A stretch of DNA of 53,345 bases. It comes from Escherichia coli. Its GTDB lineage: Bacteria > Pseudomonadota > Gammaproteobacteria > Enterobacterales > Enterobacteriaceae. The stretch is taken from NCBI RefSeq assembly GCF_003334405.1, contig NZ_QOWM01000021.1. The stretch is one strand, 5' to 3'. The position numbers and the translations under genes are program-made. The notes beneath the pieces are model-generated. The model saw only the letters and a program-made list of their open reading frames with translations. It did no database searches and was not told where the DNA came from. Shown in pieces: positions 15,703 through 15,901 of the stretch; position 1 is the first letter of the stretch; each line of letters opens with the position of its first letter.

Positions 15703-15730
15703 AGAAAAAAGCCCATGCAGAGATGGGCTA
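15703..15730 (-). terminator. Intrinsic terminator ending the glnA transcript
   Basis: On the minus strand, hairpin AGCCCATCTCTGCATGGGCT followed by TTTTTTCTCC. Confidence 0.6.
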
Positions 15731-15769
15731 CAGATAGCTGACAAACTTCACGTTGGAGAGCGACTCACC

Positions 15770-15832
15770 TGCTCCGGCCTACCACATCATCACCGTGTAG
15801 GCCGGATAAGACGCATTTGCGTCGCATCCGGC
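15770..15832. repeat. REP elements within the glnA-glnL intergenic region
   Basis: gctccggcctac and gtaggccggataagacgcatttgcgtcgcatccggc. Confidence 0.6.
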
Positions 15833-15901
15833 GTGATGTGCTTGCCACCGATCCCAGGCCTGCCAGAGACAGGCGAAAAGTTTCCACGGCAACTAAAACA
15901 C

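Follow-up and report, generated by a model that had tools for sequence, protein, structure and literature searches.

The glnA 3'UTR of an Escherichia coli K-12-type locus carries the small RNA GlnZ and an embedded REP element

The region directly downstream of glnA in a 53,345-nt stretch of Escherichia coli DNA (contig NZ_QOWM01000021.1; the whole stretch is called the window hereafter) is almost certainly, with a probability of about 0.97, the K-12-type glnZ locus, encoding a 194-nt small RNA (sRNA) that is induced by NtrC, released by RNase E and Hfq and represses sucA, glnP and aceE through a seed at its 5' end. A preliminary description of this DNA had proposed an sRNA of the GlnZ kind derived from the glnA 3'UTR. 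This was borne out by the identity of 194 of 194 nucleotides with b4836 of E. coli K-12 MG1655; the feature is an already annotated and characterized sRNA (K-12 type or class III) and hence known rather than a candidate. GlnZ has been described in two independent studies of 2022 (Walling et al., bioRxiv 10.1101/2022.04.01.486790; Miyakoshi et al., eLife, PMC9731577; cited below as Walling et al., 2022 and Miyakoshi et al., 2022). The anatomy of the locus, its identity with b4836, its conservation, the predicted fold and the complementarity between seed and targets come from our own analysis; for processing, dependence on Hfq and RNase E, target repression and RNase III cleavage we rely on experiments that others have published for the identical sequence.

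Results

Identity and layout of the glnZ locus

The positions of all features of the locus are collected in Table 1. The RefSeq annotation of MG1655 (NC_000913.3) lists the ncRNA glnZ (b4836, "small regulatory RNA GlnZ") at 4056428-4056621 on the minus strand. Window positions 12277-20277 correspond to 4053000-4061000 of NC_000913.3 (8 kb) with the exception of one SNP, so that the window is K-12-like, but not exactly the reference. The SNP (T in the window vs C in MG1655, plus strand) is located at 12786 in the hemN-yshB spacer, about 3 kb from GlnZ and beside a REP/naRNA4 unit at 12810-12887. The glnA-glnL spacer, which separates two minus-strand genes of one operon, has a length of 285 nt and is 100% identical with that of E. 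coli K-12.

GlnZ is located on the glnA strand; it follows the glnA stop codon directly and precedes glnL. A long glnA 3'UTR had been placed at 15703-15901 with the strand left unstated; the interval matches the whole 3'UTR including its terminator, on the minus strand. The length of about 195 nt that had been given for the distance from stop codon to terminator holds if it is counted to the end of the U-tract (197-198 nt), whereas only 172 nt lie between the stop codon and the terminator stem. For the K-12-type glnA 3'UTR a length of 197 nt has been published (Miyakoshi et al., 2022).

Rfam 15 gave no covariance-model support, as no GlnZ/EsrF match was found near the locus (E <= 1) or window-wide at the gathering threshold. 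Other RNA elements of the window were matched by Rfam, namely Spot 42 (9166-9284, plus strand, 122.8 bits, at the gathering threshold setting), CsrC (10313-10566, plus strand, 278.7 bits, same setting), STnc370 just after bipA (19492-19560, plus strand, 55.6 bits vs 54) and a SECIS_3 selenocysteine insertion element (44021-44079, minus strand, 84.3 bits).

TABLE 1. Features of the glnA-glnZ-glnL region in the window.
Feature	Position	Strand	Basis
Sigma-54 type promoter element TGGCACAGATTTCGCT (glnAp2), upstream of glnA	17410-17395	minus	sequence match
glnA, glutamine synthetase GlnA, 469 aa	15902-17311	minus	ORF list; NCBIfam NF007006, 1048.6 bits vs cutoff 845
glnA stop codon TAA	15904-15902	minus	sequence
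Full glnA 3'UTR, 197-198 nt, from G15901 to the end of the terminator U-tract	15704-15901	minus	
GlnZ(194), main sRNA species	15705-15898	minus	194/194 exact string match to ncRNA glnZ b4836
Seed region UUUUAGUUGCCGUGGAAACUU, 5' end of GlnZ(194)	15898-15878	minus	
Invariant 17-mer TTTAGTTGCCGTGGAAA within the seed	15897-15881	minus	conservation scan
146-nt block between seed and terminator, relative to minimal (O157-/Citrobacter-type) GlnZ	15875-15730	minus	alignments
Small hairpin GCCUGUC-UCU-GGCAGGC, next to the seed on its 3' side; forms the first part of the K-12-specific block	15874-15858	minus	MFE and centroid
Long imperfect stem-loop, ~46 bp, formed by the block	15854-15732	minus	predicted fold
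REP element GCCGGATGCGACGCAAATGCGTCTTATCCGGCCTAC	15832-15797	minus	REP motif scan
Partial inverted REP tail GTAGGCCGGA	~15782-15773	minus	read from sequence
Rho-independent terminator of glnA and GlnZ, AGCCCAUCUCUGCAUGGGCU plus UUUUUU	stem 15729-15710, U-tract 15709-15704	minus	terminator scan
glnL, NtrB/GlnL, 349 aa	14567-15616	minus	NF008293, 700.8 bits

GlnZ is released from the glnA transcript

Upstream of glnA, a sigma-54 type element is preceded by NtrC-type palindromes (TGCACC..GGTGCA-like). Since the sigma-54 pattern is not enriched across the window (18 found vs 22 expected), its assignment as glnAp2 is based on where it lies and on published work showing that GlnZ depends on NtrC and the glnA promoter. 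glnAp2 is the source of the transcript, induced by nitrogen limitation, from which GlnZ is cut. The divergent glnA-bipA/typA spacer also contains, on the strand opposite to glnA, a full-length match to the sRNA ES222 (17495-17602, plus strand, 135 bits in Rfam vs a gathering threshold of 62), which overlaps the NtrC-type palindromes upstream of glnAp2.

The experiments that the preliminary description had proposed, namely northern blotting and the demonstration of RNase E and Hfq dependence, have been published for the identical sequence (Walling et al., 2022; Miyakoshi et al., 2022). GlnZ forms of ~213, 194 and 174 nt have been reported, of which the 194-nt form is the main one, and all three share the 3' end mapped by Term-seq at the glnA terminator; northern bands of ~194 and ~174 nt are induced by nitrogen limitation via NtrC and the glnA promoter (Walling et al., 2022). 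The release of GlnZ requires RNase E and Hfq and involves two RNase E sites around the glnA stop codon (Walling et al., 2022; Miyakoshi et al., 2022). From the published length of the ~174-nt form, a second cut would be expected near 15879/15878.

For the 213-nt species dRNA-seq had suggested a primary 5' end (Walling et al., 2022), as would be expected if GlnZ were not a processing product but an independent gene, transcribed from a promoter of its own within the 3'-terminal part of glnA, with a start near 15917. We consider this highly unlikely: our scan of 15400-16100 on both strands found no sigma-70-like promoter, a PglnZ-lacZ fusion showed minimal activity of the putative internal promoter, GlnZ was undetected when the upstream glnA promoter was deleted (Walling et al., 2022), and mutation of both RNase E sites almost fully abolished the processing of glnA mRNA (Miyakoshi et al., 2022).

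Between glnL and the GlnZ terminator, just behind the latter, lies a perfect NtrC-type palindrome TGCACTAAAATGGTGCA that is overlapped by a TATAAT hexamer (15638-15659, minus strand), an element which was missed by the promoter scan because its -35 element is weak. Its layout agrees with the known glnL promoter that NtrC represses.

The seed and the terminator are conserved across Enterobacteriaceae

The conserved GlnZ seed of ~20 nt (UUUAGUUGCCGUGGAAA...) is present in the window together with the exact 17-mer, and in the K-12 type it starts 4 nt after the glnA stop codon. The 17-mer was searched in the GTDB representatives (one genome per species, 298 Gb), among which about 35 chance matches were expected. 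It was found at 43 loci, 22 of which belong to Enterobacteriaceae (Escherichia, Citrobacter, Trabulsiella, Buttiauxella, Lelliottia, Huaxiibacter and further genera) and 21 to unrelated phyla. The 21 latter matches have neither glnA nearby nor the terminator, and their number is close to the chance expectation. All but one of the Enterobacteriaceae loci (21/22) have the 17-mer 3' of the GlnA C-terminus, the 22nd ending at a contig edge, and each of the 22 carries after the seed the GCCCAU...AUGGGC-U6 terminator, of which the stem is invariant and the loop variable.

The related loci contain variable, often ERIC-like material between stop codon and seed, and in all of them but E. albertii the distance from the start of the seed to the terminator is 22-23 nt. 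A seed at the stop codon combined with a block before the terminator was found only in K-12-type E. coli and E. albertii among the species of the seed scan. A comparison of Citrobacter, Huaxiibacter and Lelliottia with the K-12 type shows that, depending on the lineage, distinct repeat families have colonized one side or the other of the same seed.

Between K-12 and E. albertii there are 16 differences (14 substitutions and 2 indels). The 146-nt block contains all of them, and the seed region (27 nt) and the terminator region (28 nt) are free of differences (P ~0.006 if the differences were uniformly spread). Small proteins were considered as an alternative product, as sense-strand ORFs of 37-44 aa exist inside the UTR. 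They are all broken in E. albertii by two 1-nt indels and a new stop, and therefore the region is not coding.

The seed pairs with aceE, sucA and glnP

Published work places the GlnZ seed between nt 194 and 174 from the 3' end, i.e., at the extreme 5' end of the main species, and the seedless GlnZ174 is inactive on SucA (Walling et al., 2022). sucA, glnP and aceE are repressed through direct pairing, which was proven by compensatory mutations (Walling et al., 2022; Miyakoshi et al., 2022). We compared the seed with the MG1655 leaders of these targets, numbering the 3'UTR from the base after the stop codon and counting contiguous pairs against 1000 shuffled seeds. These counts replaced RNAduplex energies, because the first 30 nt paired with the target leaders only weakly better than shuffled seeds did (17-64 of 500).

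With aceE, 11 contiguous Watson-Crick base pairs were obtained at -102..-92, a run reached by 2 of the 1000 shuffled seeds. In this duplex G12 of the UTR stands opposite C-99, which is exactly the published compensatory pair (G12C / C-99G; Miyakoshi et al., 2022). The pairing with sucA at -43..-36 comprises 8 Watson-Crick pairs, or 10 with G-U pairs, and that with glnP at -21..-12 comprises 6, or 10 with G-U; 115 and 508 of the 1000 shuffles, respectively, were as good, so neither exceeds the controls. Being short and not above the shuffles by sequence, these two pairings rest on the published compensatory mutations. In agreement with the published work, both sites are found a short way upstream of the ribosome-binding regions.

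In MG1655, the 3' region of fre contains, ~35 nt beyond the stop codon, a stretch of 12 nt that is perfectly complementary to the GlnZ seed (ACGGCAACTAAA). A BIME cluster comes next, which has a 14-nt complementarity to the GlnZ REP. We considered REP-REP pairing as the basis of the reported "extensive" interaction of GlnZ with the fre 3'UTR, but it is not needed: the 12-nt seed complement probably explains the fre-GlnZ RIL-seq chimeras without it.

REP hairpins and terminators are classical stabilizers of mRNA 3' ends. Together with the high degree of structure of the region and its position between glnA and glnLG in one operon, this would suit a passive 3'UTR without any trans-acting RNA, the sole function of REP and terminator being to shield glnA mRNA against 3' exonucleases and to determine how much read-through reaches glnLG. 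Such a passive 3'UTR is nevertheless extremely improbable, as the single-stranded 17-nt seed has stayed invariant between genera in which the remaining UTR sequence has been replaced or rearranged, as trans pairing has been demonstrated by the mutations mentioned above, and as the three UTR types of E. coli leave glnLG expression unaltered (Miyakoshi et al., 2022). A stabilizing function could exist alongside the sRNA, but is not a sufficient explanation by itself.

The REP element is part of a larger, lineage-restricted block

As had been described from the sequence, a REP hairpin is present within the glnA 3'UTR. We defined a REP as an extragenic imperfect palindrome of ~35 nt that occurs in many copies, with the head GCC[G/T]GATGCG[A/G]CG and the tail CTTATC[C/A]GGCCTAC, and the element in the UTR is canonical in all these respects; its own hairpin was calculated to fold at -22.2 kcal/mol. 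The strict head motif (a 13-mer with four two-fold degenerate positions) occurs in 9 copies in the 53-kb window vs ~0.03 by chance, and two to six places per E. coli genome with REP-like sequence are detectable by BLAST.

The REP is embedded in a 146-nt block that defines the "K-12 type" or "class III" architecture, and the window has this class III architecture. By BLAST only the center of the block (~15832-15773) resembles sequences elsewhere in E. coli genomes, and the flanks are unique to the locus, with no second copy in 5426 E. coli genomes. "REP insertion" is accordingly a short name for something larger, a block of which only the center belongs to the REP family. The full block was found in 1571 of the 5426 complete E. 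coli genomes (29%), BL21(DE3) among them, once per genome, and the O111 type in 993 (18%); the remaining ~2860 have the short O157 type or minor variants of it. An O157-type variant in E. coli VTB96929v has extra bases in the terminator region (a duplicated TCTCTG-like segment) compared with the common form. The O111-type UTR (E. coli 2013C-3513) contains an extra element of ~98 nt flanked by GGTTCAAA direct repeats. Copies of this element with 85-88% identity occur at other sites in some E. coli genomes, as expected of a small mobile (MITE-like) element.

Rfam also contains a nucleoid-associated RNA derived from REP325 (naRNA4, RF02564), to which the GlnZ REP shows a weak match on both strands (30.4 bits minus, 26.6 plus); the region matched no other Rfam family. 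We rejected membership in this family, since the match is missing from the scan at the gathering threshold (59.5) and since the UTR holds a single REP plus a stub and not a two-hairpin, BIME-like unit. Above-threshold naRNA4 (paired-REP/BIME) units are present elsewhere in the window at 12810-12887, 53158-53228 and 53250-53320 (plus strand), the last two in tandem at its right edge; the single REP of GlnZ is a member of the same REP family. The weak naRNA4 match and the shared family might indicate that the REP itself is the feature, either at the DNA level as a target of gyrase, IHF or RAYT or as a naRNA4-like nucleoid-associated RNA, and that the sRNA context is incidental. We give hardly any credence to this explanation, given a score of half the gathering threshold, a single REP with a stub vs the paired REP unit of the model, and 71% of E. 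coli genomes without the block at the glnA locus, in which the block is thus dispensable.

The block is predicted to fold into a long stem

The 198-nt RNA was predicted to fold at -81 kcal/mol (z = -3.93 vs dinucleotide shuffles, with 0 of 200 shuffles as good), in the order seed, small hairpin, long stem and terminator. The nucleotides of the seed are mostly unpaired in the ensemble, with a weak 4-bp helix (AGUU/AACU) in the MFE structure that is absent from the centroid. The small hairpin is kept in E. albertii with a substitution in the loop only; it has been proposed to act as a 3' stem-loop directing RNase E to the cut that makes the ~174-nt form (Walling et al., 2022). In the predicted long stem, 4 substitutions between K-12 and E. 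albertii fall in paired columns, where all keep pairing, and 10 in unpaired columns; this depletion in paired columns has a Fisher p of 0.002, although the test is biased, the structure having been obtained from the very sequences that it compares. No double compensatory changes were found in the long stem when these two distinct sequences were searched for covariation. The terminator is the sole terminator-like site in the glnA-glnL spacer, and its U-tail is the expected Hfq-binding 3' end.

The suggestion that the REP could modulate the processing or stability of the sRNA finds a divided literature. The long REP-containing stem is cleaved by RNase III in vitro, with probing data published, and GlnZ levels are lower in an rnc mutant (Walling et al., 2022), whereas the other group observed no significant change of GlnZ processing in an rnc14 mutant (Miyakoshi et al., 2022). 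When the REP was forced into its own palindromic hairpin, the predicted structure was 4.8 kcal/mol above the MFE and the seed was sequestered, which echoes an alternative 5' pairing mentioned by Walling et al. (2022). The 146-nt block might confer on K-12-type GlnZ a lineage-specific control, either by RNase III-dependent turnover or by an alternative fold with the REP as a separate hairpin and the seed base-paired, but we regard this as rather unlikely. If it were true, GlnZ activity would differ between E. coli lineages.

Discussion

Our results, combined with the published experiments, fit the following mechanism, and we saw nothing in the sequence that speaks against it. When nitrogen is limiting, glnA is transcribed under the control of NtrC and sigma-54 as far as the intrinsic terminator, and RNase E with Hfq cuts the glnA mRNA around its stop codon to yield the 194-nt sRNA. 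Its single-stranded 5' seed pairs with the 5' leaders of sucA, glnP and aceE and thereby represses them, which saves 2-oxoglutarate for the synthesis of glutamate and glutamine and limits glutamine import. A second cut just 3' of the seed leads to the inactive ~174-nt form. Folding of the 146-nt block as a long stem would keep the seed close to the module of terminator and Hfq.

GlnZ couples nitrogen assimilation to carbon flux, since the mRNA for glutamine synthetase also yields an sRNA by which 2-oxoglutarate dehydrogenase, pyruvate dehydrogenase E1 and the glutamine importer are lowered. This carbon-nitrogen link is established biology, and its confirmation here is conceptually nothing new. 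What our work adds is the conservation of the seed at 22 loci, the frequency and extent of the block, and the published aceE pairing reproduced in our coordinates. Should the block, which is polymorphic within E. coli, alter the stability, RNase III sensitivity or targets of GlnZ, it would represent a modest case of a mobile repeat rewiring an sRNA.

The closest known system is GlnZ of E. coli K-12 MG1655 (b4836; class III of Walling et al., K-12 type of Miyakoshi et al.), with which the sRNA of the window is identical and shares the position relative to glnA, the seed, the REP stem and the terminator. The O157-type GlnZ, or EsrF (85-nt 3'UTR, class I), and the O111 type (230-nt 3'UTR) have the same 17-mer, terminator and glnA-glnL context, and repress the same targets (Walling et al., 2022; Miyakoshi et al., 2022). 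They differ in the arrangement of these parts: the seed is found ~38 nt (O157) or ~184 nt (O111) after the stop codon, at 22-23 nt from the terminator, the 146-nt REP block is missing, and a small CCCGGCG hairpin is present upstream instead, to which the O111 type adds its direct-repeat-flanked element of 98 nt. Salmonella GlnZ1/GlnZ2 and the Citrobacter/Buttiauxella/Trabulsiella type (class II) likewise originate from the glnA 3'UTR, with the seed upstream of the conserved terminator; there it lies directly upstream, and the extra, often ERIC-like sequence is located between stop codon and seed, whereas the K-12 type carries its block between seed and terminator. One extra G beside the seed of Salmonella GlnZ changes the target specificity, aceE versus deoD (Miyakoshi et al., 2022). 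The three 3'UTR types of E. coli all repress sucA (Miyakoshi et al., 2022), and all GlnZ architectures repress the shared targets when overexpressed (Walling et al., 2022; Miyakoshi et al., 2022).

The biogenesis of SdhX, CpxQ and SroC follows the same logic, in which RNase E cuts a parental mRNA and frees an RNA with a short conserved seed and a terminator that binds Hfq (Miyakoshi et al., 2022), but these sRNAs derive from other parental genes, have other seeds and show no sequence relationship to GlnZ. MgrR of Escherichia fergusonii is likewise an sRNA with a REP insertion in one lineage; in that case the insertion abolished the regulation of a known target, whereas the REP-containing GlnZ still regulates (Walling et al., 2022).
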